Assembly: GCA_964276515.1 (NCBI GenBank) | Contig: OZ193909.1 | Coordinates: forward strand, 8,866,001 to 8,930,000 | Reading direction: 5' to 3' | Source of the DNA: Gordius albopunctatus | Taxonomy: Eukaryota | Length of the DNA: 64,000 bases | Shown: piece after piece, positions 3,506 through 58,950 of the stretch | Numbering within the stretch: the first letter of the stretch is position 1 | Layout of the letters: each line of letters begins with the position of its first letter | Notes under the pieces: model-generated | Databases searched by the model: none | Told to the model about the DNA's origin: nothing | Seen by the model: only the letters and a program-made list of their open reading frames with translations | Translations under genes and position numbers: made by a program

Positions 3506-3740
3506 TATTTATAGACAAACATCTTTTATTAATTCATATATTACAATTTATAAAAATCATGAGGTAATAAATGTTTATTTGATTTTAACAAAATATTATT
3601 TTCAAAGTTGTCATCTAAAAGACATGTTCGCTTGTCTCCAAATAAAATTTTGCCCAAGTTAAATAATCTTTCCACAGGGGCACTTGATGGTAATGGCGTA
3701 TTATATTTAATAAATAGTTTTTTTAATGGGGAAAACTGTC

Positions 3741-6700
3741 TTCTTCTTCTTTATCGTGTTGAAAATTCCACAGACGTGGGGTACGTTTTCAGCAGCCTCT
3801 TCCATCTGAGTCGTGTGAATGCCATGCCAATTTCCATCTGTTTGACGTCCATATCCTTTTCGACCAGTCGTTTCCAGGTAGCACGTGGTCTGCCCCTTCC
3901 TCTTCTTCCAGGCACGTCCATCTCCAGCGTTCGGCGTGTGACATCGTCTTCGTCTCTTCGTAATACATGGCCGTACCACCGCAGTCGCCTTTCTCTTAAG
4001 AAGTCCTTCGTCGCTTGTATACCCATCTTTGTCATCAAGGATTCGTTCGTCATGCGATCCAGCTTGGTGTAGCCTAAGCTCCATCGCACCATTCTCATTT
4101 CCGTAACTTGCAAGAGTTTCTCCTCCGCGGTGGTTACAGCCCATGTTTCGCTCCCGTAAAGCAAGACCGGTCGCACGATGGTTTTGTACGCCTTGCTTTT
4201 CAACCAAATTGGTATCTTTTTGTCACACATGACACCGGAGATGCTGCGCCACTTGAGCCATGCTTTCTTGATCCGAGAATGGACTTCGGCGGTACATCCT
4301 CCCTCTTGATGTAATAGCGAGCCAAGATATGTGAACTTATCAACCTCCGTGTACCTTGGACCGTCAATTTTGTGCATTTGCGGACTACCGCCCATCGTTT
4401 GCATGTAAACCGTTTTCTTCTCGCTGACCTTTAACCCTAATTCCGAGAAACGTTCTGACCATTTTTTCGCCTGATGAAAAACCCCTTCTCTTCTTTCATC
4501 GCATAGGACAATATCGTCGGCATATAGCATAGTCCAAGGGGCTGGCTTGTGCAAGTCCTTTGTTATTGTATCCATAATTAGATTAAACAAGAATGGGCTT
4601 AACGCTGATCCTTGATGTAGTCCGATCATTATTCGGAAGGGTTTCGTTACTCCTACGGTAGTCTTAACAGATGCAACAGCGCCATTATACATTTCCTTGA
4701 TAATTCGAACTCGGAACCGTATCGTAGGCCTTTTCTAAATCGATGAAGACCATGTGTAAGTTCTTTCTTATGTCGCCATATTTTTCCATCGTCTGCTTCA
4801 ACGCAAAGATTGGGTCCATCGTTGATTTACCGGCCACAAATCCAAACTGATTGGGCGAGAGACAAACTTCGTCATTGAGCCTTTTCACTAGCACCCTTTC
4901 TAATAGTTTTAGTGAGTGGCAGGTCAACTTGATACCTATAAAGTTGCCACATTCCTGCGCGTCTCCTTTACCTTTATATATGGGTATGATCGTACTTTCC
5001 CTCCATTGGTCAGGGATACGACTCTCATACAGCATAGCGTTAAATAGGCCTGTCATTATATCGATTCCTTCTCCTTTGCACCCAAGCCAAGCTTCGATCG
5101 GTATATCATCGGGACCTAGCGCTTTCCCTTTCCGCATCTTCGTTAGTTGCGCTCCTATTTCATAAGCCTGAAATGGTAAAACCAAGTTCGAATTCGGTTC
5201 CACCCTCTCTAGCGGTCTTCTATCATTCGTTTTGTTCATCATATTTTGGAAATAATCTTTCCATCTTTTGATGACTTCCTTTGGTTTGCACAACGTTCGT
5301 CCCTCTTCGCTTTTAATGACTTTAAGTGTCCCGACATCTCGACTTTTTTTCTCCCTGATCTTTGCGAGTTTATACATGACTATGTCGCCGCCCTTGGTAT
5401 CGAGCTTGTTTGCCATCTCGGTGTAAGCCTCGTTTTTCGCTATCGCGACCGCTATCTTAGCTTTACGTTTCGCTTCACGATATGCCTCGTAGTCTTCTCC
5501 TTTCTTCGTTTTGTACCATCGTAGGTACAACGCCTTCTTTTCTTCTATAACCTCTTTGACCGAGTCATTCCACCACCATAGTTCACACTTGTGAGCTCTG
5601 CCGCCCTTAGTTCGTCCCAATATTTGAAAGGCCGTTTCCTTTAGAACATTTGCAACGGTGCCCCACCTTTTGTTAATGTCGCCCTCCAAGCCTGCAACCT
5701 TCAAGAGCGGAGTTGCTCGAGCGTGAAACATTTCATTTGCATGATCATCCTTAAGCTTTTCGTACTTCGTCCTTGGTGTGTAGACTTTTCTCCTTACGGG
5801 AAAAATCTTTCTTGCTATATCGAGGACAACTGGCCGATGTTGTTTGGCGATTTCTTCCCCCGGTGTAACCTTGCAATCTTTAACTTGCCACAAATTTTTG
5901 CGCTTCACTAAGATGTAGTCGACCTGTGTAAGGTGATCCCCACTATTGTACGTCGCTAAATGTTTGGTACGCTTCTGAAAGAAGGTATTAACAATGGCCA
6001 TATCGTAAGCTTGCGCCATCTGTAGTAACTTCTCTCCCTCTTTATTTTTTACTCCATAGCCATGCCCGCCGTGATTTCGTTCGTACACGCCCCTTTCTTT
6101 CCCAACGTGCCCATTAAAGTCTGCTCCGATGATGAGATTCTCGTCAGGCTTCACGTAGCGTATTTCTTCTTCGAGCTTCTCATAGAATTCGTCCTTCTCG
6201 TTTTCGGAACATCCAACCTGGGGCGAATACGCACAAATAACATTGACAAGGCCGCCTTGATCCGCCAGCTTTATGCACATCAATCTATCTGAGCATCGTT
6301 TGACTTCGACTACCTTGTCCTTAAAGGAATCGCTAAGCACTATACCGACCCCGTTCTTCCGTGATGGGGACCCGAGTAGTATAGCTTGTAACCATCTCCT
6401 AGCTCCCTGGCTTTTGTTCCATGCCACCGCGTTTCTTGTAGACACGCTATGTGTATCCTTCGCCTTTTTAGCATCTGCGCAACCTCGATGCTCTTCCCCG
6501 TCAGCGTGCCCACATTCCAGCTAGCCACTCTTGTCCGTTCGACAACTAGGTTCCTTAACCGCCTTCGTTGTGAGTGAGGCGGTGACCCTTGTATACTTTT
6601 CACATTGCACGGGCGGATGATGCAATGCGCGTCGTTTGGGGAGGACGCCCTAGCATTCTGGTATAAGTTCGTATTTGTTGAAGCTGCCATGGTGTTTGGA

Positions 6701-6781
6701 GTTGCTTTTTACAGCCGGCTTCCGACCTGACGCCAACCCTCCACTTTTTCACACGGACTTGGGACCGTCGTTGGTAGTGTT
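3741..6781 (-). mobile_element. Full-length RTE-clade non-LTR retrotransposon (APE endonuclease + RT), two frameshifts
   Basis: ORF pieces 6340-6690, 4685-6445 and 3751-4692 carry SWNV/LQET, GADFN, QGSALSP and YADD motifs. (GAA)n tail. TSD taatggggaaaactgtc at 3724-3740 and 6782-6798. Confidence 0.95.
6733..6781 (-). ncRNA. Twister ribozyme core at the RTE 5' end
   Basis: Minus strand reads AACACUACCAACGACGGUCCCAAGUCCGUGUGAAAAAGUGGAGGGUUGG. This matches the P1-type twister pattern: CAC/GUG stem, ACGG/CCGU stem around UCCCAAG, ACC/GGU pseudoknot, GAGG. Confidence 0.8.
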
Positions 6782-7238
6782 TAATGGGGAAAACTGTCTA
6801 AAAGATTTAAATTCCGGTTATTAGAAAGCAAAAAACGTTCAATTGATTCATTCTTTTCATCATTTTTTAATGCAAAAAAATCCATTTCTGATAAACTAGG
6901 TCCAGCCTGTTGAGATTTAGGAACAAACAAATTGATAGGAATATGAAAAAAATTAAAAACCAATTAAAGGAAATGAACTTTATATAAATTACCATAAGGC
7001 GAAAAATTTATTTAACAAACACTACCGTGAATAAAATACTAAATAATATTTAAATTATAAATTAATTTAAAAATTTTTAATGCAAATTGAAATTCGAAAA
7101 AGGAACTTGTAAGTAGTTCCTTTTGCGATAAATTGAGAAAAAAAGGAACTAGTTCCAGTTCCTTATTTTAAAAAGGAACTTATTAGTTCCTTTCTTTTAA
7201 AAAAAAGGAACTAGTTCCTTTAATAGCTCTATTTATAA

Positions 7239-7492
7239 GGAACTTTGCCCCCCTCCCTTTATTTGTCCCGTTGGTTCGCGCCCCCCCCCCAATTTTTTAC
7301 CGTCTTTCTCACCAGAGGGGGGGGGGGATGTTTTGCTCCTACCCCTTATATTTTACCCTCTTTTTACTGGTGCCCCCCCCTATTTTTACCCTCTTTTTTA
7401 CCAAGGGGGGAGCCCTCTCCTCTGGTGAGAAAGAGGGTAAAAAAAGGGGGGGGGCAAACCAACGGGACAAATAAAGGGAGGGGGGCAAAGTT
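7239..7492. mobile_element. Foldback MITE
   Basis: About 35-bp TIRs (aactttgccc...tgtcccgttggtt / aaccaacgggaca...gggcaaagtt); atttataa flanks both sides. Confidence 0.8.
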
Positions 7493-7765
7493 ATTTATAA
7501 TATATATAAAAAATTTTATCACAATTTTTGGATTAATATGATTGGAAAATATTGATTCGCACTATATGTCAGGTGCCAACTCTAATAGTAAGCTATAATA
7601 AAATCTGCTGAAAACCATGTTTAGTTTCAAACAACATTGCTAGATACCACGGTTTATATCAAGCAACTCTTATTATATCTTACTCAACCGGCACCTATCA
7701 GCAGCTTCAATCTGCTAGTGCTAGTAACCGGGTTATTAAGCACCATCTGCTCATTATGCTAGATG

Positions 7766-10236: not shown

Positions 10237-11752
10237 TTATGCTTTTTCCTCTTTGACAACATCTTTTTTAAGTGGCCCCTAAGAAATTTAAGTTTAATAA
10301 AAAATATCATTTTTACCATAAATGAAACTCTATCATGTGTAGTTTGAAATCGTCCATGGCCAAATTTAGATGATGTGTCTATAAACTTTAATGTAATCTT
10401 CTCAGAAGCCACTCTCTTGGTTTGAACTAACAATGACTAAAAATTTTTATATATATTAATTCAAATACACAACCTTTCTAAGTGTAATAACACGCTTTTT
10501 GGCACCCATTACACATCCTTTCAACATAATAAAATCATTTATAACTTGCCCATAATGAGGGAAACCACCCTAAAAGAATAAAGCAACCTATTGGGTTTAA
10601 AATACCATAGGAGTTATTGACTTATCAGTGATATCATATTCAGTTGAAGCATTATTTTTAATAATCTTGCCATCCTTTTTATGAATGCCTTGACCAATTC
10701 TATATATTTTTTTGTTTATTTCAGTGCGGTGATGATATCCCTTTTGACCAGCTCTTGCAACTGTAAATTGTACACGACTAGGATGCCATGAGCCTATACA
10801 TGCAACCTTTCTAAGTCCTTTGTGAGTCTTTCTGGGTAATTTCTTAGTGTGCCATCTAGATGTAACACCTTTAAATCCTCTACCTCTTGTAACTCCAATA
10901 ATATCAATCATTTCATCCTGTGAAAAAACAGAATTTACAGGAATTTGTTTTTCTAAATGCTCCCTTGCCCAATCAATTTTTTCAGGCACAGTACCACCAT
11001 TTACTTGAATCTCCATAATATGCGCCCTTTTCTGGCCTTTGTGTAAAAGTTTCATCTAAATAGATGTTAAAACAAATGTATTCTTTTAACCTGTGTATGA
11101 GCTATTACGCGTATTGTAGAACAATATCTTTTCATCTTTTCAAAATCTTGTTGAATCTCTTTTTTTCCTGTTTCATCCTGCCATTTTAGGGCATATTTAG
11201 TAAAAGCCTTCTTCTTACACTTGTACCTTAAAATATTAGATTAAATATGAGTCTCATTGTAAAAACAAGAGGAGACTAAGTTTTTAGACAAGTTTATAAT
11301 TGGATATACTTACCAATTCTTATAGAAGCGTCTTTTACAATCTTCACTAAGATGCTCAGAAAAAATAGTTTTAAAGGTTCTTAATCCTTTGGGGGTGTCA
11401 ATATATCCAACAATACCTATAATAGCCATTGGAGGAGTTTCAATAATAGTGACGGCTTCCACAACCTCCTTTTTATTTAATTCTAATCAATTATAGTAAG
11501 AACAATATATAATACTTGATCCAGGCTTTTCTACATCCCTGACAATATGAGTCATGCCAGCTTTGAACCCAATAAAAGCTGTAAGGTGTATGGGTTTTGA
11601 CGGATCATCTTTTGGAAAGGACTTAACCTTTCCTCTATGGCGTCTACTCCTCTTCTTTGGAGTAAAGCCCATATGACCATGTCTAGGCGCTGAAAACTTT
11701 CGGTGAGACTAAAGATGTATTAGGTATAAATTTACACAAAATTACTTACCAT
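10237..11752 (-). CDS. RPL3: 60S ribosomal protein L3 (uL3), 8 exons, 402 aa
   Basis: Exons 11752-11750, 11708-11516, 11482-11314, 11226-11091, 11055-10606, 10569-10474, 10436-10317 and 10278-10237 total 1209 nt with GT-AG introns. Motifs [22 protein letters not shown] and [12 protein letters not shown]. Confidence 0.97.
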
Positions 11753-17115: not shown

Positions 17116-17394
17116 TATATAGATATATTTAATATCCATATATGCTATATAATATAATATTATATATAATGAAATAACATTAGCACATTTAGTTATTAAA
17201 AAAATGCCAATTATTATATCATTTAAATAATTTCACCTATAACTTATTATTATAATTAAGAAATATTTTAAAATATCTATTTCTTATAACCTTACTATAT
17301 AATGCATTACTTTATTCAATTATATTTCTTTTTAAATGTTTAAGATATGTGTCTTATTTGTGTCGTAAGTGAGCTGCGTTATAGTTCAGTTGAA

Positions 17395-20130
17395 CTGGAT
17401 TCCTGCTGGGCTTCACCACTGCACATGGCGCCCAAAAAGAACAATGAGTGGAGATCATGCGGGGATTATCGAGCCCTAAATATAAAAACAATTCTCGATC
17501 GTTATCCTCTGCCCCACATACATGATTTTTCACTTTCCCTGAAAGGAAAAAATATATTCACCAAATTAGATTTAGCACGAACTTATCACCAAATTCCAAT
17601 GGCACCAGAAGACATAAAAAAAACCGCCATCACAACCCCATTCGGTTTATTTGAATTTGTACGCATACTTTTTGGTATCAGAAATGCAGCACAAACATTT
17701 CAAAAATTCATTGACAATGTTCTCAGAGAATTTGACTATACATTTACTTATTTGGATGACATATTAATTGCCAGTTCTTCTCTAGCAGAACACGAAATAC
17801 ACGTAGAACAGGTAATTCAACGACTATTCGATAATGGGATTAATGTAAATATGCAAAAATTTAAATAGGGTGTAAAGGAAATTGAGTTCTTAGGACACAT
17901 AGTGACGTCTTATGGGTTAAAACTTATACCCGATAAAATAGACGCCATTGACAAATTTCTAACCCCAACTTCAATGAGACAGTTGAGAAGATTTATCGGC
18001 ATAATAAATTTTTACCGAAGGTTTATCCCTAATTGTGCAGATCTCCTCAAACCATTAACCGATGAACTCGACGATACTAAAAGACCAATAGATAAAGAAG
18101 CATTTATTCAGGCAAAACAAGCCCTTAAACAAATAACTTGTCTATCTCATTTAGACGAAAAGAGGAAACTGTCACTCACTACTGATGCTTCCAATTTTGC
18201 AGTAGGAGGAGTTCTACAACAACAAACAGCAAACGGTGATATACTACCACTTGCCTTCTATTCAAAGAAACTTTTAGAAACTCAAACACGCTATAGCACA
18301 TTCAGGCGAGAACTACTGGCCATTTACCTTATGATAAAACATTATAGCCATGTTCTCGAAGGACGCAATTTCACCGTATACACCGACCACAAACCCTTAA
18401 CTTATGCACTTAAAGCCAAGTCGGACAAATATTGTTCTCGAGAAATTCGTCAGCTGGACTACATCTCTCAATTCACATCGGACATTTAATACATTCGAGG
18501 TATCACAAACATTGTGGCTGATACCCTGTCCCATACAGACATCGGCACAATCCAACTCCTTGCATCACAGTCATTGCTGGAACTCATAGCTACGAGACAG
18601 AAGGTTGAAAATTAAACAAATGATGAAACTAAATATTTAATATTGGAACAATTTCCAATACCTGATTCAAAACAAAATATCATTTGTGATGTTTCTATAA
18701 CAACACCTCGACCTCTGGTACCTTCTAACTTACAACAAACAGTTTTCAATCAATATCACGGATTATCACATTCTGGTATCCGTTCAAACCTGAAACTAAT
18801 TGCAAAACTTTTTGTCTGGTCTAAAATGAATCAAGATGTACGAAGATGGGCTCAACAATGTCATAATTGCCAGGTCAGCAAAATACATAAACATGTTAGA
18901 TGCTCGATTCAGCCATGTCCACCTAGACATCGTTGGTCCGTTACCACCATCCAATGGTTACAACTACATTTTTAAAGCCATAGATCGATACACCCGGTGG
19001 CCAATAGCAATCCCTATAAAAGATACTTCAGCCGAAACCGTGGCTAGTACCTCTTTAACACAATTATTTGGAATATAAATTTGATTATAATCAATACAAA
19101 AAAATCCATTTTTATTTGAATTCCTTTATTTTTCGGTGTTCTAAGCACAATAACAACTGACAGAGGATCGCAGTTTCGTTCAACGCTATTCCGGCAATTT
19201 TCCGAGCTTCTTGGTTATCATCACATAAACACAACGGCCTTTCCACCGTTAGCTAAAGAGTTCGATCATGGCAAAAAAACAACGCTAAAAAATGGTCCGA
19301 ATCACTTCCGTTGATACTACTAGGCATTAGAACGACAATCAAAGAAGATCTAACCTCTTCTAGTGCTGAACTAGTATATGGGACTACCTTACGTCTCCCG
19401 GGCGACTTCATACAATATTCGTCACTCGACACCAATGCTACTGAGTTTGTACAACGCCGTCGACACAACTTCGACAACGTACGTTTCTCACCATCACGTC
19501 CGTCAAACAACAAACAACATATCCCTACGGATTTGTTTTCTACACCTTACATTTTTATCAGGACTGATAAAGTTCGAAAAAGCTTATCCCCACCATACGA
19601 AGGCCCCTTCAAAGTTATTGACAGACAAACTAAATACTTTGTGGTAGACAGAAACGGTAAACAAGATAACATTTCTATCGATCGGTTAAAACCTGCATAT
19701 ACCGAATCAGTTAACCTTACAAAACCACTCATAAAAGGCCCGACCATTCAAACCCAACCTTCCACCTCTACATCCACAATAATCTCAACTAACACTACAA
19801 CAAACCCTACAACAACAAAATCAGGACGAAAAGTTCATTGGCCAGTTAAATTAGCCGAATACTTATATTTCTAGCACTCCTTGCAAACGGGAGGGGGAAT
19901 TATATGGTTACCTATTCATATAGCTTAACCTTTATTATTTGAATATATCAACTCTATCATTGGTTAACTATTCTAATACTTAACCTTTATTATTCAAGTA
20001 TTCACTCACCCTAATCATAAAAGTGAATACATTCAAGTATTTGAATATCTCGCAATTCACCGTTATTAAGATGTGTATATAAACACGATGTTTTAACTAA
20101 AATTTATTCATTCAATTCTTTCTATTATTT
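17395..20130 (+). mobile_element. 5'-truncated Ty3/gypsy pol (RT, RNase H, integrase) pseudogene with PPT and degraded 3' LTR
   Basis: YLDD, TDAS, DHKPL, HHCC, TTDRGSQF and PYEGPF motifs with stops and frameshifts; purine tract at about 19888-19899. Confidence 0.9.
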
Positions 20131-22379
20131 GGAAATAAAAATGTTATTTGCTCTCATTAAATCCCTTGTCTAATAAAATACTATATTTATTAATATTTAT
20201 AAGGACGACGGCAGTAACAGTATTTGTTTTTTTGGATTTTGACAAGCTTAATCTACATTTTTTATATTTAAGTGTATTAATCTTCTATCACTTAAAACAA
20301 AATTTAATTTGTAATGTAGTCAAAATCTGGCAAATTGATTTAATATCACTCACTTAAAGGCATGATGTAGGTGATTGTTAAAATTTACAATTATTCATCA
20401 ATAAAAAAGTATTTTCATTTTTATAATAAGACTAGCTGTGCCCGGCCAAGCTTTGCTTTGGCTCAGTCCTTAAGTGGTTAAATAAGTATAACCTATTAAT
20501 AAGACTTATCTAAAATGGGGTCATATATGAAATAATGTGAAAGGTCCGAATGCTAATGCAAATAAATATTCATAATATTTATTTAAGAGCGATATAAAAT
20601 ATTTATTAATAATTCATAAGAGTATATAAGCATTAAAATATAAAAAGCTTATAATAATGTATGGGTAATAAAGAGCTGTATGAAGATTTTGGCTGAAAGT
20701 ATAATGTAAAAAATCATGTAAATAGTAAAATAAAACCTGCAAGGGAAAGTTGATGGATAAAGGGTAAATCAAAGATAGGTCTGTCTTATGAAGAATAAGG
20801 TAATACGCGTACAGTATTATAGCTTCTTGTAAATGTCTCGGCAAATTTGGTTATAATACTCTGGCGTAATAAAAAGGGGAGAAATGCTAAAATAAATATA
20901 AAATTATAGAATTTAAAATGTGATTATACGCGAGTAAAATCAATGGGCTTTAATGGTAATTGCTAAAAGTTATGAGTGGATAAATAGAAATAATACTAAC
21001 TTTAATTATTCATGCAGATAAAGAGGGTTGTAGGTTCAGGTAAGAGATGCTTCACAGCTTAAATTCTTCCTTAGAAAGAAATAAATTGCTATAATGCTTG
21101 GAGATAGACAATATTTTTGACCATGTTATTATCTGTGTAGATATACAAATTTTGTGGATTGCCAACGCGCGAACATGCAACATATAATTGTCCATGTGAA
21201 AAACAATCTGTTTCTAAATCTATACCACAAATTTCTAGAGACTGGCCTTGAGCTTTGTTAATGGTAATAGCAAATGCGAGTTTAAAAGGAAATTGCAATC
21301 TTGTGAATTCAAAGGGTAAATCTGTTGGAATCAAAGGGATCCGTGGTATGAGGACATCTTCTCCAGTGAAAGGTCCAGTCAAAATCGTGGCCTCAACAAC
21401 GTTGCACATTAAGCGTTTAATAGCAAGACGTGTGCCGTTGCAAAGTTTTGGCTGATTAACATTGCGCAACATCATAATCGGCATACTAATTTTCAAATGC
21501 AAAACGTGTGGTGGTATGCCTGGGAGATCTAGCGAATTTAAAAATTCGAGCGGATAATTAACAGCGTCATCAGCAGTAACAACAGTATCAACCGATTTGT
21601 AGGTAACTGGAGTGCCTTCAATTGTAGACAGAATGAGATTGTTAAGTTCTTGGACGTCTTTATTCTTTGGGGCAAGAATAGCCCGTTAACGGAGCCATAT
21701 TCGATCTTGATAATGGGTGTTAATATTTGGAAAAACTTTTTCTACCAAAGCTGTTTTGGACGACACAAAATAGCAGAATTTGGTATGAAATGAAATCCGT
21801 CCTGAGTTTATATCGACGTGCACGGTTCCGTTTCCAATTTCTAGCAATTGATGGGAGAAGAACTCACATGCTTGATTTTGTAACATTACACGCATATTAG
21901 TAGTTAAATTTAAATGGAAGTAGGGAGCCGGCTTTATGATAAATTTGGCCCTTTACCTTGAATGTAGGCATGAATTGTGTGGTTACAACATCAGCGCCAA
22001 ACGACGTCATTTGGAAACAGGAGTTGTATTTCCTGATGTTAGATAGAAAATGTTTAGAACCAGTTGTATAACCAGCCAGCAATGTTTGTAATGGCTCAGG
22101 CGGTTCTGCAAGGTGAGGCAGTTTAACTTTTCCGGCTGCGCAACACATTCCAGTGGTTTCTCCAGCAAATTTCATAGACATAGTACCAATGAGAATATGG
22201 CGACGTAAACTTTCAATATTAGATGGGTAAGAAAATGCTAGGCGGTTGCCTGCGGGTAATGGCTGAGCACGTGAAGGTGGCTGAGGCAGAGTTGCAGAGT
22301 GTTATAGTTCATTTTTAAGCTCAAGAGTACGCAATCGGCGCAATCGATCCGCATTTCGTGTACTATGTTGCTGCTCACA

Positions 22380-28403: not shown

Positions 28404-31230
28404 TTATTCGGAGTCACTAGTATAATCACTAGTGTCTCTTTCACGCGAAATAGTATTAACATCAAGTGAATTATTATCAAAATGCGAGTTCGAAGAAAAA
28501 TTAACAAGATTATAAACGCGCGAAGTACCACTATATGATATATATTTAGCTATATTGTCTACATAGTTTAAAATATTGTAATTACGCGATGTATCCATGT
28601 ATAAATCGCGTAAAATATTAATAGGCGTATTTTTATAGCGTACATGTTTTTTTATAGAAAATAATACTTGACCTTGATCAATTTGAAAAATATTAATCTC
28701 AGCCTTGGTGTTAATTTGAATTAAAAATGAAACGCAAGTGTAAATGTCGGGATGGGATACTCCAATAAGAGATTTGAGGGAATTGTGATAACCCTCGAGG
28801 TGATTGTTGGTCCTAGGACCAACAGCCTCGTATCTCTGCCACATTTCATAGGAAAATGTGACTGAGTGGCTCACCCAAGTGTTAAATACATACGAAAAAA
28901 AGAACGTAATTTTGCATGCTGGGAGACAATAGGGTCATCCCAGCAGGCTCGAAAAACGGTTAAAACGTCCTCATATCGTAAGAAAGAGAAAGCGGACACC
29001 CTTCGGACCATTTTTCGAATGTTCTGATCACTTAGGTATTGTTTTTTGAATTCCAACTTTTCTACTCGCCTCACCAAGGCTTTCGAAAAATGAAATAAAC
29101 AACCTTAAATAAAAAATTAGTACGACAGATAAATTATTACCTTTGATCACACCATTCGGAAAACACCTTTGAAGAGCGCTCTTCGCAGAGCGCTCAAAGT
29201 CTATTTGTATATAGGTCGGGTTTAATTCCAAATTAAACTCTAGGCAAAGCTCTTTCAACTTATCAAATATAGCACAATACGTTAATCGCTTCCTGTCGGG
29301 CATGAAGGCATAAACTATTGGGATCATATGATCCTTATAGTACCCGTGTATGGTGTAAAGCTAAAATCTCAAATCTATTAACGCATAAAATTAATTACTT
29401 GGTAGAATAAAGTAGGGCATACTTTAAAGGTACCATCCATGTAGATTGAGGTTACCTCACACAAGATTCTCAACATAGAAGGGGTCCCGAAAATTAACAA
29501 GTTGTTATTTTCGTTCCATAAAAGGAACCGCTCATTCCTCGGAGTTAGTGTTTGGGCTTCAGTCAAAATAATTTGACTTCTGTTGGCAGGTATAGGAAGC
29601 CTATTAATAACGCCTCTTTTCATCGTCGACCTTACGGCTTTAAAAGATGGCATAGCCATAGGAAATTCCGTAAGGTCAGGCACCTCAAGCATTCGGGCGC
29701 TTATGGTTTGATGATAAATTTTGCTAATTTTGACACCGGGATTAGACGCAACAGCGTTTTTCAACTCCCTCTTCGTCACCAAAGCCTCGTATTCTTCCCT
29801 TGGAGGTTCATGGTTATGGTGACGATTGATAAGAATTCTACCATCAACCTCCAAGGCTGTTGCGGGGCAAGAGAAGTCGCGGCATTTGTAGTAGGTTTTC
29901 TCTGAGGCCTTCCTGCTTTTAGCATAGAGATAAGAGGAGTAATATAGTATTACTCCTCCATTTGATCTGATATACTCTGGAGATGATGCTAAAATAATAT
30001 AAAAAGCTTAAATAAAATATACATACCTTCGCTTGATTCCATCTGATTTGTAACATCCATGAGAAGCATAGCATCTTGAAGTGATTGTGGACCTAAAAAG
30101 TACAAAAAATCCTAGGGTAATATACTTGGAGAGGCAAATAATTGTGCTTGAATTGGAAAATTAGGTGGACGAGGAGCTATTGCACTTATTCTTCCAGCTT
30201 GTGGATCTAAAAAGTACAAAAAATCCAAGGGTAATATACTTGGAGAGGCAAATAATTGTGCTTGAATTGGAAAATTAGGTGGACGAGGAGCTATTGCACT
30301 TATTCTTCCAGCTTGTGGACCTAAAAAGTACAAAAAATTCTAGGGTAATATACTTGGAGAGGCAAATAATTGTGCTTGAATTGGAAAATTAGGTGGACGA
30401 GGAGCTATTGCACTTATTCTTCCAGCTTGTGGATCTAAAAAGTACAAAAAATCCAAGGGTAATATACTTGGAGAGGCAAATAATTGTGCTTGAATTGGAA
30501 AATTAGGTGGACGAGGAGCTATTGCACTTATTCTTCCAGCTTGTGGACCTAAAAAGTACAAAAAATCCTAGGGTAATATACTTGGAGAGGCAAATAATTG
30601 TGCTTGAATTGGAAAATTAGGTGGACGAGGAGCTATTGCACTTATTCTTCCAGCTTGTGGACCTAAAAAGTACAAAAAATCCAAGGGTAATATACTTGGA
30701 GAGGCAAATAATTGTGCTTGAATGAAAATTAGGTGGACGAGGAGCTATTGCACTTATTCTTCCAGCTTGTGGATCTAAAAAGTACAAAAAATCCAAGGGT
30801 AATATACTTGGAGAGGCAAATAATTGTGCTTGAATTGGAAAATTAGGTGGACGAGGAGCTATTGCACTTATTCTTCCAGCTTGTGGACCTAAAAAGTACA
30901 AAAAATCCAAGGGTAATATACTTGGAGAGGCAAATAATTGTGCTTGAATTGGAAAATTAGGTGGACGAGGAGCTATTGCACTTATTCTTCCAGCTTGTGG
31001 ATCTAAAAAGTACAAAAAATCCAAGGGTAATATACTTGGAGAGGCAAATAATTGTGCTTGAATTGGAAAATTAGGTGGACGAGGAGCGATTGCACTTATT
31101 CTTCCAGCTTGTGGACCTAAAAAGTACAAAAAATTCTAGGGTAATATACTTGGAGAGGCAGTTCCAGGCAAAGTTATCCTAGGAGCAGTTGTAATGAGAC
31201 ACATTCTCACAAAATTTAGAGGTTGACCTA
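28404..31230 (-). CDS. FLYWCH zinc finger + MULE transposase-like gene A (spliced, apparent frameshifts)
   Basis: YYKCRDFSCPA..HHNH, MDGTF, IDFE, CLFHF and RTNNHLEGYH across small introns; frame break near 28880; 5' end uncertain. Confidence 0.8.
30089..31160 (-). repeat. 114-bp tandem array: 33-nt intron + 81-nt exon
   Basis: Ten gtatattacc...tttttag intron-like segments separate nine near-identical exon-like segments encoding PQAGRISAIAPRPPNFPIQAQLFASP. Confidence 0.9.
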
Positions 31231-39933: not shown

Positions 39934-42442
39934 TGTTGCGATCGTTTGATTTAACTTTATTCTAACTCCATACACTTTACAACATAAACGAGACGAGACG
40001 CGATACAACTAAAATATATGCGATAAAACTACAGTATGCTAAAAATATTACAATCCCCAATAGGGAAAACGCATAACACGTGTTCTATATATTTTACTCC
40101 ACCAGTATAATAGAACTTAAGCGTAAGTTACACTTCGTCAATTATCCTCTACACTTCCCCCTTTTCACAAAGATAATGCCTTAGGTAGCTTGGGGCCTGT
40201 CGTACCCGGCGTGGGTATCTAACATCAGGCGGGGCGTTGTTAAGCTCCGGAGCCATGGGAGCGACACTGTGTTCCCCCGCTCTTGTAGCGGCACTATCAT
40301 TCGGAACCGTTGGCAAGGGACCCTGACTGGACGCCGTTGGTAAGGGCTCGCATCACTTGACTCGTTCGCGAGTGTATCCCGGTGCGGCCAACCATTTTCG
40401 TGTCCAACCATTCTCCAGTACAGTATTTTCCTTCGTCTCACTTGATCTAAATGTCGATGGTGGCTTCTCCCTAGGGCCTTAACGTCGAACGAGTGCGCCC
40501 CGCGCTTGGAAATAATGGTGCCCTCCACCCATTTATCGGGCCCCAGGTACATACGCACCCACACTGGGTCTCCGACGTCGAACACTTGCGCCTTTCCTGC
40601 ATCTCTCCACTGGGGTGAGATAGGTTCTCTTAATACTTCCCTTGACTCGTGCAGCTTAGGTAGGTACTTTTTGTAGCGTAGCCTTGGACCGACAACTACT
40701 GTTGTACCGCGCGTACCCCTAATCCACTCTTTGCGCTGCCGTAAAGTCCCATCGCTGGCGGTGTACTGTCGTATAACGTCCAGTGCGATGGACGCGTTCG
40801 CGATATCCTCTAGTACATCTTCGGTAACTTGGAACGAATGCTTGCTTGGTCGTCTCGACACAACAATGAATGCGTTATCCTTACCCTTGATGGCAGCCAT
40901 GGCTCGACCTTGATCTTGGTCCGGTGTCGCGTTCCTAGAGAGAGGCTTATTGGGGTTGGGTGGAATTACAGATTGTTGCTGAGACGAGGAGCCAGGATCC
41001 CTAGAAACCGCTTGCGGCGGTGCTACGCTGCTTTGTTGTTGTGGTAACTGACCAATCAAACCGGGTTGCTGTTGGTCGGGGAAGAAAACTGGGCCCGGCA
41101 TTAAGACGGGTGGAAAAATCCAGCTACCGGGTGGCCTACACATTGGGCCCGCACCCAAGGGAGGCATTTGACTATATTGCATTCCGATACTCACGGGATC
41201 GCTAGGTCTCGGCTCTTTCGTGACCTTCTCCTCGACAAAATTAACAACGTATTGCTCCATGACGGCTCGCGAACTCTATCGGGTTAGTTCCCATACGTCC
41301 TTTCCTAACTCTTTTATCCAGTTTGTCCCGAGTAACGGCGGTACCTTCACATCCACCACCAGCATCGAAAGGCGCTTTCGGTTGGGACCTAGCCGGACCT
41401 CGGCTGTTATGTCCCCGATAATCTTTATCTCCTTGCCGCCAAACGCATACACGGCAGGTCTCGAGTTTGCTTGCACGGGTAAGCGTTCCTTCCACAAGTT
41501 GGCCGGTACGATTGTAACGGTGGATCCCGTGTCCATAAGAAAAGTTATTAATGTTTTATTAACAAATACATCAATAGTCATAATATCTAACGCATGGCCG
41601 AACCTGGTCATACTCGGGCCCGTCCTCGTCGCGTCGACCGCAAATGCCTCGTCAACTGGCTGATGCATTGTCCTCAGACCCTCGCCGATTGCCTTCCGAC
41701 CTAGGGCAATCTCCACGGCCTTGTCCCATTTCAGATCCCTCTCGGCCATCAATGCAGCCTGCACCGTTGGATCGTGGAGTCCTAGAATCAGCTGATCGAG
41801 CATCCTGGCCGATAATTCTCCAGGCTGGAACCCGCATTCCTTTGATGCCTCTTTTAGCCTTCGAATATACCGCATGAGCTCCTCCCGGGCATCTGACGAA
41901 TATTTCCAAATCTGAATCTCTGTGGAAGCGGGCAGGTTTTCCCTTTAAATACTTTCCTTGCCCTCTTGGTCGCTTCCTCGAAAGTCCATTCGGTAGGGTT
42001 ATCCGGGTACGCGTCGCCCGCGATAACCTTAAACGCCTCCGCCGATAACGAACTTAGGAATATGCACGTTTTCTGGGTATCCGATAACGTCCCTGACTGT
42101 GCCTTGAAGTTGGCCTCGAATTTAATTAGGAATGTTTCGATCGCATTGGACAACTGGAATAAATTCATAATGTAAATCCAGAATAATATCCTCAGACTAA
42201 TTTCCCGGTAGGTTCTCGCAGCGCCAATGTTGCGATCGTTTGATTTAACTTTATTCTAACTCCACACTTTACAACACACACGAGACGAGACACGATACAA
42301 CTAAAATATATGCGATAAAACTACAATATGCAAATTATTACAATCCCCAATAGGGAAAACGCATAACACGTGTTCTATATCTTTTACTCCACCAGTTAAT
42401 AGAACTTAAGCGTAAGTTACACTTCGTCAATTATCCTCTACA
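39934..42442 (-). mobile_element. Non-autonomous Ty3/gypsy (Mag-like) LTR element
   Basis: LTRs 39934-40153 and 42228-42442; TSD attat; PBS tggcgctgcgag; PPT aaaagggggaag; gag, DTGS protease and integrase C-terminus present; no RT. Confidence 0.92.
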
Positions 42443-42555
42443 ATTATAAGAACACATAGATATAAGATAATCATTATAATAAAATTAACTGTATAAAGAG
42501 CTATTAATTAAAAATAATAACATATGGCTAGCTAGTCTCTATAAGTATTCATTAA

Positions 42556-42800: not shown

Positions 42801-45800
42801 CTTCTTCTTTCTATGACTGCTTGTCACCTAGGCTGGTGGTCAGTCCCTTCAGCATTCGTTTCCATTTGTTTCTATGTTTAAATAGATCTTTCTTTATCTT
42901 GTGGACTTTCATATCATGCCGTATTTTATGAATCCAGGTAAGCTTGGGTCTTCCTCTCCTTCGTTTTCCTGCGAAATTTATTAACTCGATTTTCTTTCCT
43001 ACGTAGCTATCGTCCCTTCTTTCGACATGGCCATACCATCTTAGTCTATTTGTTAGGAGCTTTGTCTCAATTGATGTATTACCCAAAATTCTTCTTATTT
43101 CTTCATTTCGCCTATTTTCGCTTACTCCCAGCACCCATCTTAGCATTCTCATCTCCATGGCCGCAAGAGGTTGCTCTTCTCTCTTACGTATAGCTAGAGC
43201 TCTGCACGGGCCACCTGAAGCCCGGCCGGGCCGGGCTCGGTCAAAATTTTATAATATAATCGGGCTCGGGTCGGGCCTGGTGTGGCGGCCCGACCCGAGG
43301 CCCGAGCCCGGCCCGAATTGAACTAAAACAAATTAATCTCTTATAAAATAGGATTTAAATAAAATTCGATATTAAATAATATTTTTTTCGCACAGCGTAC
43401 ATTATATAGCTTCCAAACTTTAGCTTTTTTCCTTGTCTATTATAATATAATTGACCTGAATTTCAAATCTTATTCTAGTATTTAAATAGATTTATAGTAG
43501 CTGTTACAACTTTAGAAATAAGATAAGTAAATATTTCAAAAGGTTTTTTTTGTTTGAACTTTTAAAAATATATATTATAAAGTTAAATTTTTAGCTTTAA
43601 ATGATTAACCGAATAAATTATAACGAGTGAAAAATTTTTTATCTCAAACTTCTCCTAGTTGTAAATACGTGTAATAATAATCTAATGCATTTTATATTAA
43701 GATGGTGAAATATTTTTCAAAAATATATTTCTCAAAAATTTTAAAAAATCGGGTCGGGCTCGGGCAAAATAAAATTTGAGAAGTCGGGCTCGGGCCGGGC
43801 TCGGGCAGAAGAAATTTCATTTTGCAGGGCTCTACGTATAGCCCATGATTCCGAGCTATACAGGACTGTTGGCTGTATGATGGATTTATACAGTGTGCCT
43901 TTTAGTCTTCTCGAGATGTTTTTGTCACACAGAACACCTCTCAAGTCCCTCCACTTGAGCCATCCAGAATTTATCCTTGGTTGGATTTCTTTATCCATTC
44001 CATCATCCGATTGAAGTGTTGATCCTAAATATTTGAAGGAATCCAAGCTTGTGAGTTGCCAATCGCCTAAAGTAAGGGGTGCACTTTGCTGGTTTTCATC
44101 CGATTTAAACTTTGTCTTCATGTATTCTGTTTTCTTTCGATTTACCTTGAGACCATTTTCTTCTATTGCATTTACCCAACTATTTACAGTATTTATTAGC
44201 CAATTCTTGTTCACTTTTGGCATAGAGGATTATATCGTCTGCAAAGATCATTGCCCAAGGAGCTTCCTCGCCCAAGTCCTTGGTAATATTATCCATTATC
44301 ATTATAAATAGGAAGGGACTAAGAGCTGAACCTTGATGGACTCCAGTGTTAATGGCAAAGCCCTTTGTAGTCCCCACCGATGTTCTAACGTACGTTCTAT
44401 TTCCCTTGTACATATCTTTTATTGCTCTGACGTATACTTCTGGCACATTGTTTTCTTCAAGACATTTCCAAACTAAATTACGAGGAACTTTATCGAACGC
44501 TTTTTCTAGATCGATGAAACACATGTGCAAATCCTCTTCCCTTTCTTTGAACCGTTCCATTAATCTTCTAACACTGTTTAGGGCGTCTGCTGTAGACCTC
44601 TCCGGCATAAATCCGAATTGATTATCTCGAATTTGAACCAAACTCCGAAGCCGTTTTTCGATCACTTTTTCCCACACCTTGAAAGTGGGACTCATAAGCT
44701 TTATCCCTCTGTAATTGTTGCAATCCTGAATGTCCCCTTTCATCTTATATATCGGGATCATGTAGCTATCTCTCCACTCTTTAGGCATTTTACCCGTTTT
44801 CAAGATATTGTTGAAAAGGTTGGCGAGGAATTGTGTACCAGTATTGCCTAATGCTTTGAAGCCCTCTATTGATATATTGTCGGGTCCAAGGACTTTTCCT
44901 GATTTTAGTTTACCCATAGCAACTTTGATTTCCGTTTCCGTGATCCAGTCCGCTGTGTTTAATTCTCCTATTGTGTTCTCCTGGTTAGTGTCTTCGAAAT
45001 TGATAAATCGCTATAATAGTCGTACCATCTTTGTAGTATATGGCTGTCGTGTGTTAGTATTTCTCCCTTTTGACCCTTGATTAGCCGGCATTCTAGGTAA
45101 TCTTTAGAATTTCGGGCCCTTGACTTTGCGATTTTGTAGATCAATCTTTCTCCTTCCTTTGAGTTGAGTTTTACATTTATATCGTCGTACACCTTGTTTT
45201 TAGCTTTCGCTACGGATTTTTTAGCCGATCTTTTAGCTACTTGGTAAGCTTGCTTATCATTACTATCCTTGCTTTTATACCAAACTTTGTACAATCTCTT
45301 CTTTTCCTTAATACATTTTTGCACTTCTTCATTCCACCACCACGTCTCCGTGAGAATTCTTTTAGTAGGCTTGCTTTCACCTAGTATTTGTCGTCTCGCT
45401 TTTCGCATTGTGGCAGCTATACCATTCCATTGATCCTCACATGAAGTATTTTCCTTAAATTCAGCATGTTTAATTACCTGTTCCTTAAAATGTTGAATAT
45501 TATCGGCCCTTTAATATAAAGTCCATCACCAACAGCTTGTGTTGGCAGGCCAATATTTCACTCGGTATTACCTTAACATTTTGAACATACTTTAAGTGCG
45601 CTCTGTTTACTAGAAAGAGATCTATCTGAGTGGTACGGCTGCCGCTTTTGTACGTTATAAGATGTTCCTGTCTCTTTTTGAAGAAGGTATTTCCTATTGC
45701 TAGGTCAAAAGCTTGAGCAATTTCTAGAATTTCCGTACCTCCTTCATTTCTTAGGCCGTAACCCCGACCACCTTGATTTATTTCAAATCCTCCCCTTGAT

Positions 45801-46442
45801 TTGACTACGTGTCCATTGAGGTCCACTCCGATAATTATTATTCCCTCTTTACCGAATTGGGATAGAACATCTTCAAGCTCCTTCCAAAAACACTCTTTTT
45901 CCGTCTCAGAGCAACCACTTTGAGGGGCGTATGCTGATATAACGTTTATCGTAGTAGATTTATAAAAAAGCTGCATCGCCATAATTCTGTCATTGATTCT
46001 TTTAACGTCGACGACAGTTTGCTGAAATTCTTCCGATAGCACTTTACCGACGCTATTCCCGTGAGTTTCTGTACCGTAAAAATAAAATTTGTATCCGTCC
46101 CCTATGTATTTTGCTTTTTGGCCCTTCCATTTGGTCTCTTGTATACACGCGATATCGATTTTTCTCCTCCTTAGAACTTCTGCCAATTCTCTGCTCTTGC
46201 TAGTCATTGTACCAATATTCCATGACCCAAACTTTATCCTACGCAAACTAATGTCTTTAACCGCTTCCGTTTGTTGAGAGAGCGGTAGCCTTCGTTTATT
46301 TCCCACACATTCCAGGCGAAGAATGCGCGCGTCGCTTAAGGGGGACGCCCTATGGTTTTCATTCTGCGTCTTTGTTGTAGTATACATTTTGGTTTATTTG
46401 GAATGAGGGAGTATTGATATCCCGGCCTTCCAAGCCTGACGG
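42801..46442 (-). mobile_element. Second RTE retrotransposon, frameshifted and MITE-interrupted
   Basis: ORF pieces with SWNI/IQET, QGSALSP, FADD and RLRWYGHV; GAA tail at 42801-42812. Confidence 0.93.
43195..43834. mobile_element. hAT-type MITE inside the RTE
   Basis: TIR tagagctctgca / tgcagggctcta; 8-bp TSD cgtatagc at 43187-43194 and 43835-43842. Confidence 0.92.
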
Positions 46443-49400
46443 AACTATGTTAGATTTTGGCGCTTGACTTCCTACTATTCTTTATGATGCAGTCATTATT
46501 GATAGGCTTAATCTAGCACTTCCATTTCACTAAGTACTCCCTCAAAAAGCTCAGAAATTTTAGTCTGACCCTTCACCAAGAACCTTGCCAATAGGGTGAC
46601 CCCACCAGTAACAAACATAAAAATTGTGTTTGGCTACCAAAGGTATAGCTTCTTGGATCACGAGAGTACACAGGCTCAACCACCACTACAAGGTATTTCT
46701 CATACAAAATTATTTGGAAATAAACTTCTATCGATGTAAAAAAAATTAAAAGCCTATGCATATGTTATTTATTTTTTATTAATAGCTTTATATTTAGTAA
46801 TTTTTTAATATATTACAATTTTGCCATTTAAATTATAGTTTTTAGTTTTTGTGTCTAGTTTGTTATAGTCATTGGCGTTGTGGATGATTGGCATTATGAA
46901 TGGGATTCGTTATAGAAAGTGAAATATGAAAATATGACTATAAATAAGCCTAAAGTATAGAATATATTTTTTTTAGTTTTTGTGAATTATAACATTTATA
47001 TTAAATTTACTGTGTCAAATAGAAATACACATAGAAATTTTTAAGTTGACTTAAATGTGACTTGGATATATATGGGCTAATTCAAATACTTTTTTAACAC
47101 TGGCTAAGGCCTAAAGCTCTAAGTAAACCCTCTGTTTAACTAATCTAAGGCAAACTTTATAGTCCATTGATATTACCATCATCAATTATAGCCCACAGAA
47201 TTTATTGCTTGATATAACGTTATAAACCAAAAACCATTGTATACTTTTAATATTAGAATTTATAAAATGGAACGTTTAAAACAACAATAAAAGTAGCATT
47301 ATTGGAATAAGAACATAAGGTTTATTATTATTTTTTCATATTTTTAAACAAGATGAAATTTATATTTGTACAGGATAGGGGGATATATCGGGCCGGGTAA
47401 GGATAAAACTTGCCTCTCCAAAGGGAGACTTACTTCTATTATTTTCTCTACATCTTTATTATACTAAAAACTACGTGAAAATCATAGAATAAATTAATAA
47501 TTCAATCTATGAAAAGTTATCGGCACGTATCAAAATTAATGATGCGTGTTCGTGTTGATCAATAATATATATGGGGAAGAAATAACAAATACGTATAAGC
47601 GTGTGGGGGGGAGGAAAAGTCACACACACGTAAGTAAAATTAAATGTAAAGGAAAAGACGTGTATACTCCAGTATACCACAATTTTGTTATTAATTTTAT
47701 ATATAATTTTATAACAAAAATCATTGTAATAAAAAGTAAACTACGATATTAAAGTTTAAGGTCCCATTTTATATTCCAAAAAATTGCCTCCCATTTTTAA
47801 CTATTGCCGTTAAATATTTATTTTCTAAAACAATATATATCGTGTATTGAATTTGCAGAATCCCCATATAGAAATTTTTGTTAAATGCACCAGCCAACCA
47901 TATTTTATAAGTTCTTCTTTATTAAATGATAATTTTGAAAATGATATTCAAGTCCAATTCCCATCTACTTTAGCATGATTTCTATTATCACCTGTAGATA
48001 TATATATTCCATTGTTTAAAATGAAAAATAAAAGTTTTATACATAGAATGGTTTTTCAAAATTATATAGCCGATTTAGTTTTGTATAAAAATAGCTTGCT
48101 GGTCTATGAAAAATGTTTATTAATATTTTATAATTTAAATTAAACAATAATAAGTTTAAATAATTAAACTCAATCATCAATAAAAATTTTATTCATATAA
48201 TTTTAAAATTGCTGATTGAACTTAGATTTAAAAAACTGATTTTGAATGAGATAAAACATTTTTTGTAAACCCCTCGCATCGGATTAAAAGTCTATAATAT
48301 TTAACAGAGATATGAACTGAACTAGTTCATTTTGTAAAATTTGAACTAAGAACTGAACTAGTTCGTTTTTAAAAAAAATTTGTTTATTCATGATAGTTTA
48401 GCAAAACTTATCAGTGTTTTTCATAGATATATTTTCGGAAATCGTCTTAACACCCTCGACAATTCGGTGGGAATTGCATCTTTCCACGGCGATTTCAACG
48501 GGGAGATGATTTGTTACGTGATCACATCCGTGTCCACGGTACCCGCTTTGTCTACTAGGCCACCAGGTAGTAACATGTTATCCATAAAGGACGTTTGTGA
48601 AAACATATCGTTTCCAGGGACGGGGTATTGGACTGGACAGTGGTTATGGTGAGTTGAGTTTGGCAAATTAGGCCAATGGTGGTCATGTCCAAGTCTTTTT
48701 TAGCTCTTGGCATAAGCAAGGGTGTTGTAGATGCCTTTACGCTTATGCAAATAAGTAAGAGAAATAAGGCTTAAAGTAATAGGTGTGCGAGTAAAATATT
48801 CTGTAAACGAATATGCAAATGGCAGGCCTCAAGTTAGTGGAGACGTGCAGTATATCGAACTGTCGGGAAGCATCCCTCATCCAAATGAGGAGGGCATCGA
48901 CAGGGTGTAAATAGCGGGCATTTTGCCATGATAGAATCAGTTATTAAATTTGTTATTTAGTCCTGCGGAAGCAGTTATTTGTTTGTTTTCTACTCGTTAG
49001 TCGTGTGGGGCGGGAGGGATATTTTATTTCCATCTTTAGATCCCGTTGGTCCAGCGGTAGCATGAACGAAGAACCAAACGGTCTCCCTTGCCCAACACCT
49101 CCAATTACTCGTAGATGGCACTAATCTAACAGATGGATCTCACGGCAATTTCTCCACGGCCATCGTCCAATCCATACATTTATATATCGAAAATCATTGT
49201 CGGATTCTTTATTGATTTATATTGTTATAACCCGATTGTACAAATTGAATTTATTAGAATAAAGGATTTAAAACCAGAAGTTGCGGTTATATAAAGGTAC
49301 TGGCTGGAAAAAGGGGGTAGATAAGGAAAAAACTAGTAAGTTTAGGGGTGTTACAACGTCTGGCGCCAAAACGGTAGGTAACAGAGAAACAAGATAATTG

Positions 49401-52689: not shown

Positions 52690-53220
52690 CAGGTTTACAC
52701 ACATTGCTTGATGTTACATTAAAAGTAAAGTGGCGCAACAGGAGTGCTTGCCTGGATTCAAGTACTGGTGTTATGTGAAAATTCCAATATGGTTAAAGAA
52801 CAAATTTTTCAAATCCATCGTAAGACCGCTGTTACTCTATGGAAGTAATGGGTATTAAACACCAGGGAAGAAAAGCTATTACAATTTACGACGGAGACAA
52901 GAATGATATGGTGGAGCTTAGGGTATACTAAGTTCGACCATATGACGTACTTTCTCATGACAAAATGGGTATCTATTGGGGATATGATTAACGAAAATCG
53001 GATAAGGTGGTATGGGCTAATACTAAAAGGGCGACGAATAATTTGAATTGAAAATTACTTGACATGGAGGTACAGGGGAAGAGAGGAAGAGGACGACCTC
53101 GTTTAACGTGGAAAGGGCCAGTCAAAATTAAGACATAGCACTTACTCGATCAAGATGGAAGAAACTTTTCAAAACAAACCCCGCGACTGTGGGACCAAGA
53201 CTTGATAAAGAAGAAGAAGA
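52690..53220 (+). mobile_element. Decayed, 5'-truncated RTE fragment
   Basis: Similar to the 3' end of the first RTE (IVRPLLLYGS, RWYG, GKRGRGRP); aagaagaaga tail. Confidence 0.8.
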
Positions 53221-57319: not shown

Positions 57320-58950
57320 GTTACCTTGGAAGAGATTTGGTTGTAATACGTACAAGGTGAAAATAGAAAGAATACACACACAGAATTAACTTTCATTTGA
57401 AAGTGTGCGATTCCAAGTTGACATTGATGGCCAGGTATTCCATGATTGTCCTAGGTTCCAGCGAGGATTTATTGTGGTTAATGGTAAGGTTCCAACATTT
57501 AGGCAGGTATAAGAACCGCAGAGTGTCAGCCTTGACAAGTGTTTTGGAATGCTCATAAATCGTTGTATTTCGACTTTGTCACTGCCTTGCTACATAGGTC
57601 CATCATCACTTGTTGTAGCACGAAGGGTGAAAACCCAGCCCCCATGGGCAGTACCTTGTAGGAATACTTTTGTCGTCTGTATCGGAAGCCGAAGAATTTG
57701 GAGGATTCCACTGCCGGAGGAATAGAGAAAAACGCGGCCTTCATATCAATTTTGGTCATGAATAATGCGTCCGACAAAGAAGAAGCGATTAAGGGAATGG
57801 ATATCAGTGTAAACGGGTACTTTATAAAGTTTTTCAATATATGGTATAAATCAGCTATCAGTCGTGGCGACCCGTCACTTTTAGTGATAAAGTACTTGGG
57901 TGACGGAATGGCTTCTGTGTTGCTACGGACAATATTGCTGAGGATAATTTCATCTACCAAAGGTTTGTGCTTACGGGGGATAGCCTTTACATACCGAGGG
58001 ACATAGTATTTCCCCTTGTTATCTGCAATGGCTTTTCGCGAAATCTTTGGTTTAAACCCGTGAGTCGCAATCCTATGAGTGAATCGTGATTGCATGTGAT
58101 GTGGTTTCAGGATTGTTGTTCGTATGGATAGGGGAAGATCAAAATGTGTAAAAGAGGATAAGGCGTGGGAGGGGAATGAGGGAATGTTGGATGGTTCGCT
58201 AATGATAGGTGGGCTGTCGCTATCCAAACCCACCTCCCTCCATTGATCGTGGAGATGTCCCGGCACATTTAAACGTTCGGGTAGCGGCGCGTCGGAAGGA
58301 TGAATCGGTTCCTCCAACTCCAGGCCATCGTCGGGAGAGATGATGTTTAAAGCGATATTCCTGGCAATGGCAGTATAGTTATTTAACCATGTTGGAATAG
58401 TACCATCCCTCGTCGACCTCGGCGGGTTAACACCACAGCCGAGGGTCGCCGCTACCGTCCTTACGTATCTACGTTCGTTCCGCCCGAGGCGGAGGCGCCC
58501 CTTTCGCGTAAGCGCCCTTCTTCCTTGGAGCATTGAATCTATTAGGCGGCCGAAAAAGCTGCACTGGTTCGGTATATTGCCCCATACCCATTTTTTCGCC
58601 CCAGTCTTTGGGTTTTCCCGTGACTGCTTGCCATCCGTAATGTGACCCCATGGCTATTGTTCTGACTCTTTCTGAGAACTTGTCGATAGTTTTATCATAG
58701 TCGTTGATGGAATCTTCCAGACTGAGTAGGAACTCCGCCTCATGTTTCTGATAGGCTGGCATCGAGTAGTTTGTCTCTACTGCCTAACGTAGGCCCTTGA
58801 GTCGCAGTTTCAAAACCACAATATTAGAGTTGGGGGTGCATGATGCCCTAGCACGTTCGCTGGCCAGTAAGGTCCATAGCTCCGCACGAGTCATGGTTAC
58901 AGACTCTGCCGGTTGGGACGGCGCCCAATGTGGCCGATCCACCACATTGA
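57320..58950 (-). mobile_element. DIRS/Ngaro-like retrotransposon fragment (gag-like + RT)
   Basis: RT motifs KIDMKAAFFSI and LPMGAGFSPFVLQ, thumb INHNKSSLEP..EYL, and an overlapping upstream gag-like ORF. Confidence 0.75.

Follow-up and report, generated by a model that had tools for sequence, protein, structure and literature searches.

The closest described counterpart of the element analyzed here is Perere-3 of Schistosoma mansoni, which is reported to carry T-variant twister ribozymes at its 5' end (Liu et al. 2021, PMC8501958). The association of twisters with RTE elements in Schistosoma, mentioned in a preliminary description of our locus, is published for this family. In more general terms, the 5' ends of the RTE superfamily have been said to carry 'truncated but catalytically competent' twisters that take part in 5' processing (de la Pena 2020, PMC7761336); this account, in which the general association is the same as here, is one sentence without data, cited there as in preparation, and a follow-up paper was not found in the literature searched. 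R2, RTE and other LINEs are also described with HDV-like ribozymes at their 5' ends, where self-cleavage releases the RNA of the element from read-through transcripts, in the same manner as would apply here; their fold is unrelated to that of twister (PMC6765202, PMC5786205).

Among the literature searched, the twister-headed arrangement has been published in detail for one fluke family only. The window, by which we mean the whole stretch of 64,000 nucleotides analyzed in this study, contains an RTE copy that adds a probable nematomorph to it, and RTE-like elements headed by a twister, belonging to two deep lineages, were found when metagenome contigs were scanned for the pattern. The arrangement itself is already known from Perere-3; the host is probably unreported for it (no nematomorph term was found in one supplement file of PMC8501958), and the only novel lead is a hairpin on the 3' side of the core. 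At stake is whether a copy's ability to propagate is determined by the site where it lands, a question that the 3' hairpin makes testable with short RNAs.

Like Perere-3, as far as the latter is described in PMC8501958, the window copy has a twister-P1 core at its first bases, a duplication adjoining AA, a single APE-RT ORF, a short-repeat tail and GAGGG followed by UUGG, and it corresponds to the '3A' type. It differs from Perere-3 in having a twister without P3, in building P2, T2 and P4 from other pairs, in the distance from the cut to the AUG (91 nt versus about 112 or 147), in the tail ((GAA)n versus GTAA) and in the host (a probable nematomorph versus a fluke).

The RTE element and its junctions

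The element occupies about 6781-3742 on the minus strand, is 3.04 kb long and is flanked by 20-bp direct repeats (Table 1). Both its architecture, an AP endonuclease followed by RT in about 1000 aa and about 3 kb (PF03372 and PF00078), and its ends, a (GAA)n microsatellite tail and a target-site duplication of 17-20 bp, agree with those of the RTE clade, an assignment based on this architecture. The three frames together are collinear with homologues of 969-1013 aa at 41-56% identity. A protein search returned 241 matches at E <=1e-50 among 7994 candidates, with top identities of 45-46%, and the named top homologues belong to moths, fish, plants and nematodes. In a quick RT tree, which contained neither a named RTE reference nor an outgroup, the window copy clusters with homologues from insects, fish and plants, none of them labelled RTE by its source.

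The reading frame is broken near 6349-6373 and again, together with a deletion, near 4710. Both termini are present, yet because of these two breaks the window copy lacks the intact ORF of an active autonomous element and is a dead copy. The 'full-length RTE' of the preliminary description is thus complete at both ends and interrupted in its coding part.

Table 1. Coordinates of the element, its twister core and its flanking duplications in the window
Feature	Position	Strand	Remarks
5' target-site duplication copy	6780..6799	(-)	Maximal 20 bp; 18 bp (6799-6782) with an element start at the predicted cut
L1 5' strand	6780..6782	(-)	A(-1) 6782, general-acid A(+1) 6781, A(+2) 6780; identical with the microhomology
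Twister core	6737..6781	(-)	Lacks P3 and a P1 5' strand of its own
AA	6781-6780	(-)	Bases after the predicted cut
P2	CACU 6779-6776 with AGUG 6745-6742	(-)	4/4 Watson-Crick
T2 pseudoknot	AC 6775-6774 with GU 6758-6757	(-)	By sequence
P4	ACGG 6768-6765 with CCGU 6756-6753	(-)	4/4 Watson-Crick
L4	6764-6757	(-)	Within the twister core
T1 pseudoknot	CCC 6763-6761 with GGG 6739-6737	(-)	By sequence
GAGGG	6741-6737	(-)	General-base G at 6741
Nominal P1 3' strand UUGG and predicted hairpin ending at GUAAAA	6712..6736	(-)	Covariation in relatives
First AUG of the ORF	6688..6690	(-)	91 nt downstream of the predicted cut
ORF piece 1	6340..6690	(-)	N-terminus and start of AP-type endonuclease; PF03372 E 1e-4, below its cut-off
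ORF piece 2	4685..6373	(-)	Endonuclease, linker and first part of RT; PF00078 E 1.2e-9
ORF piece 3	3751..4710	(-)	Remaining RT and C-terminus, stop 3753-3751; PF00078 E 3.1e-14
(GAA)n microsatellite tail	3742..3750	(-)	Last A common to tail and duplication
3' target-site duplication copy	3722..3741	(-)	Perfect repeat; backed in two runs by contigs that skip the element

The longest direct repeat across both ends is a perfect one of 20 bp (6799-6780 and 3741-3722) and is found nowhere else; the 17 bp given in the preliminary description is one valid reading of it. Since three nucleotides, AAA, are common to the target and the start of the element, the 5' end can be placed only within 6782-6779. 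The predicted cut, 6782|6781 in the context A|AA, falls within this interval, and the duplication stands directly beside AA, as in T-variants, within the 3-nt microhomology. The 'exact 5' end' claimed earlier is consequently compatible with the cleavage site and fixed only to this interval, and the U|A given earlier for the cleavage site is A|A here, the base before the predicted cut being A (6782).

The element sits in a host repeat of high copy number (3541-3741 and 6780-6963, minus strand). Element-free contigs from two runs, which skip 3057, 3059 or 3060 nt versus 3058 expected, confirm the insertion into this repeat; their lengths vary in the A-run and leave the exact base unfixed. Frames on both sides of the insertion, in the same strand, resemble what we take to be the C-terminus of a DNA transposase. 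These frames gave no match in a Pfam search and are a possible source of read-through transcription.

The twister core and its relatives

The scissile bond was placed by analogy with the Perere-3 twister (PMC8501958), and the residue roles were assigned from the established twister structure, as given in PMC5408937. The preliminary description had claimed a complete twister core at the start of the element, and this is borne out: A(+1), A(+2), the general-base G, P2, P4, T1 and T2 are all intact, the pseudoknots by sequence. The Rfam twister-P1 model (RF03160), which had been proposed as a check, matched over model positions 1-68 with 38.0 bits, at an E-value of 8e-7 in 501 nt and of 1e-4 in the 64 kb, where it was the top of 10 matches. 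At the gathering threshold of 67.2 the window twister gave no match, and all ten relatives tested (37-61 bits) also fall under that score. A paired descriptor gave a single match in the window and none in 200 Markov resamples (28 kb, both strands).

Stem P1 is the exception, with one of four canonical pairs formed with the native flank in register. Like RF03160 and the P1-less mini-twister of PMC5408937, as these are described, the window copy has P2, P4, T1, T2 and the general acid and base; unlike RF03160, it has no canonical P1, scores below gathering and carries a predicted 3' hairpin that differs from the upstream P0 of the consensus. The conserved core, the three A and the three mismatches in four P1 positions agree with the T-variants of Liu 2021, which have 0-7 A at the cut and tolerate as many as four P1 mismatches. 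Because P1 is wanting here, yet is relaxed in T-variants and can be dispensed with in vitro, we class the ribozyme as a T-variant and not as a canonical twister-P1.

At five paired positions both bases differ from the pair most frequent among the relatives, with pairing retained: P2.2 (A-U, where 21/31 have U-A), P2.3 (U-A, where 27/31 have C-G), P2.4, T2.1 and P4.1, in a test that is partly circular for the relatives, whose 5' strands were located through pairing. A sister twister, seen in the loose-end consensus of run X3, differs in the two unpaired linkers, with its stems preserved. The twister pattern had no match in viral contigs, and no non-circular permutation of twister is reported in the account of PMC10085705.

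The metagenome scan yielded at least 120 loci (120 listed of about 250), and the window element's own family was absent among the 120 listed. A related multi-copy family accounts for 50 of those listed, and minus 4 that were too short and 4 duplicates it comprises 42 copies with distinct flanks. Thirty-two of the 42 start at AA and 10 start 6-41 nt inside, with no start at 1-5 nt inside. The per-position profile, made from the 32 copies selected for AA, is flat at position -1 (A9 C6 G7 U10, 0.03 bits) and reaches 2 bits at position +3. Local alignment placed 15 starts at negative positions; we take these for chance matches to the AT-rich flank of the reference copy and regard the profile as the better measure. 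An RTE ORF lies downstream in 9 of the 23 loci with at least 1500 nt of downstream sequence, versus an upstream match in 0/42 (near-duplicates retained). According to the quick tree, the twister-headed ORFs form two deep groups with 26-29% and about 42% identity to the window protein.

Duplications are seen in part of these relatives. A repeat of at least 9 bp was found in 10 of 35 loci, with 5 of the 10 ending at -1 to +1 of the cut, and the 9-bp repeats may be chance matches; repeats of at least 11 bp number five in the same 35 loci, and three of them, duplications of 11-15 bp in short elements, end at 0 or +1. Five loci (L038, L070, L079, L081, L030) are twister-headed elements with a length of about 130-370 nt, whose duplications lie at the cut or close to it; they are probably non-autonomous RTE derivatives. 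Five others (L023, L028, L093, L110, L111) are GC-rich and twister-like, with no RTE match and no TAAA anchor, and are possibly not retrotransposon-borne.

For the window element's own family, the contig depth in run X1 is about 0.99M at 6624-6747, 0.39M at 6748-6871 and 0.09M at 6872-6995, and runs X3 and X6 have the same trend, in coarse bins where depth does not represent copy number; the drop in bin 6748-6871 is a weak hint at the 5' end of this family. In X3 and X6 the depth at 6500-6749 also exceeds that of the element body, and loose ends in the same region show the sister twister and a different downstream sequence. The excess is possibly due to short or sister elements with a common head.

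Proposed formation of the 5' end and possible role of stem P1

The window copy is a frameshifted end-to-end RTE copy whose first bases form the twister core and whose 5' end very probably goes back to a parent RNA that had cut itself immediately ahead of AA. Under this proposal, the parent RNA would arise by read-through transcription from flanking DNA, and the predicted self-cleavage before AA would free an RNA beginning 5'-HO-AA. Target-primed reverse transcription would then copy the released RNA to its end; on the 3' side the tail may pair with the target, as modelled for RTE (PMC6007223), and the 5' junction would be joined with the aid of the A-run common to the target. P1 would be unneeded: its 5' strand is missing, its nominal 3' strand is predicted to fold into a downstream hairpin of the element's own, and the flank might only tune activity.

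It is at the P1 step only that a second model rivals this proposal. The model, put forward in PMC8501958 and again in the preliminary description, agrees that the end is ribozyme-set and holds that activity depends strongly on a P1 5' strand supplied by the target site. It starts from an observation that stands, namely that the element encodes no P1 5' strand, and the rates of Perere-3 T-variants are in its favor: 3A, 4A and 7A, the first being the type of the window copy, had lower rates in split-strand assays, with A|AA still cut (PMC8501958). Flanks can also matter, as upstream hairpins reduced cleavage in a large screen (0.40 versus 0.85; PMC11662667). The same screen of natural twisters argues against the model in that P1 imperfections did not reduce cleavage and A at -1 gave 0.72 versus 0.76 (PMC11662667), and a twister without P1 was reported to cleave at a rate near wild-type (PMC5408937). 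Furthermore, in the relatives the nominal P1 3' strand has its pairing partner downstream. On balance we regard the model as rather unlikely; the slower 3A type speaks for the claimed dependence on the insertion site, and the dispensability of P1, the single pair out of four and the hairpin of the relatives weigh against it.

Pseudoknot-free folding pairs CCCC of the native flank with the GAGGG strand and assigns to P2 a probability of 0.2-0.65 with the native flank versus 0.56-0.95 without it. In such predictions, inhibition by the native flank would be at least as likely as help, if it has any effect. Pairing in P1 is not enriched among the flanks of 31 relatives (on average 0.71 contiguous pairs versus a background of 0.86), which indicates only that insertion is untargeted, random daughter flanks being expected in either model.

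The evidence for the 3' hairpin comes from 28 representatives anchored on GAGGG and a downstream TAAA-like motif, 17 loci without the latter having been dropped and two more removed later. In 27 of the 28, the base two before the TAAA-like motif is the pairing partner of the fourth base of the nominal P1 3' strand, with all four Watson-Crick types (25/28 versus a shuffle mean of 10.4); UUG was imposed by the search pattern. The long class, 14 of the 28 sequences and of equal length, has a hairpin of nine pairs with 83% of cells paired versus 44-56% in slid controls; eight of the nine pairs show two-sided change, and the covariation score was reached by 0/500 shuffles, which ignore relatedness. 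RNAalifold recovers this hairpin unaided, with the second U paired as well. No support for the hairpin came from a mixed-length alignment with an off-by-one structure (56.7% paired versus 64.4% in the slid +1 control). For the short class of 11 sequences, which the window copy resembles, the RNAalifold fold is different and weak (-0.77 kcal/mol), and single-sequence folding of the window copy prefers other registers, giving the three basal pairs of the hairpin a probability of 0.0.

A more tentative suggestion is that RTE twisters are P1-less by design. The strand shown by Rfam and by Liu et al. as the 3' side of P1 might then be the 5' arm of an element hairpin, kept through covariation in distant RTE families, which could substitute for P1 as the stacking base under T1 or protect the core against random flanks, with cleavage largely independent of the site. 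If true, this would reverse the published insertion-site model, and the hairpin may correct the drawing of P1 in retrotransposon twisters. Descriptions of such a 3' hairpin were not found in the open-access literature searched. Its identity with the known P0 of the twister consensus was considered and rejected, as P0 sits upstream.

Other readings of the 5' end and other features of the window

Two further readings of the 5' end were weighed. According to the first, the 5' end is the transcription start of an internal promoter, with a twister that either has a structural or translational role or survives as an inactive relic beginning there by chance. Pol II transcripts commonly start at A, which counts for this reading, and the cleaved ribozyme has indeed been proposed as a translation aid (PMC8501958). 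Nevertheless, the window copy retains both catalytic bases and both pseudoknots with compensatory changes, the AA start recurs in distant RTE lineages with proteins 26-42% identical to the window protein, and cleavage at the equivalent position is reported as mapped for Perere-3 (PMC8501958); we therefore hold an internal promoter to be improbable. A longer element 5'-truncated by the A-run microhomology, with the match to the cut site arising by chance, is more improbable still: it can draw on the 3-nt microhomology at the junction and on the 10/42 relatives truncated inside the ribozyme, but the contig depth drops to the flank level just past the junction in three runs (coarse bins), and no sequence upstream of AA is common to the 32 AA-starting relatives. 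Self-cleavage before AA remains the reading that we prefer.

The window contains further RTE-like sequences. A second, decayed element at 43741-46700 (minus strand) has patchy identity of 66-79% to the first; no duplication of at least 10 bp was found around it in the ranges tried, and its leader has no Rfam match and an unremarkable folding z of -0.45. The leader may resemble those of RTEs that carry HDV-like ribozymes. A related RTE 3' fragment lies at 52778-53217 (plus strand), and a further RT fragment at 57553-58653 (minus strand).

Among other repeats, direct repeats of 223 bp with 94.6% identity surround a frame for a retroviral-type aspartyl protease at 39934-42445, possibly a small LTR element, and a further LTR element is represented by RT and RNase H frames at 17344-18489. 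Palindromic MITE-like repeats occur at 7115-7511, a Pif1 helicase fragment at 21089-21685, a FLYWCH frame at 29378-30007 and a 114-bp tandem array at 30085-31160. Finally, exons of ribosomal protein L3 are found at 10597-11500 (minus strand), and the exon at 10597-11055 has 93% identity to a Gordionus protein, which makes a horsehair worm the probable host, the other animal matches shown being <=86%.
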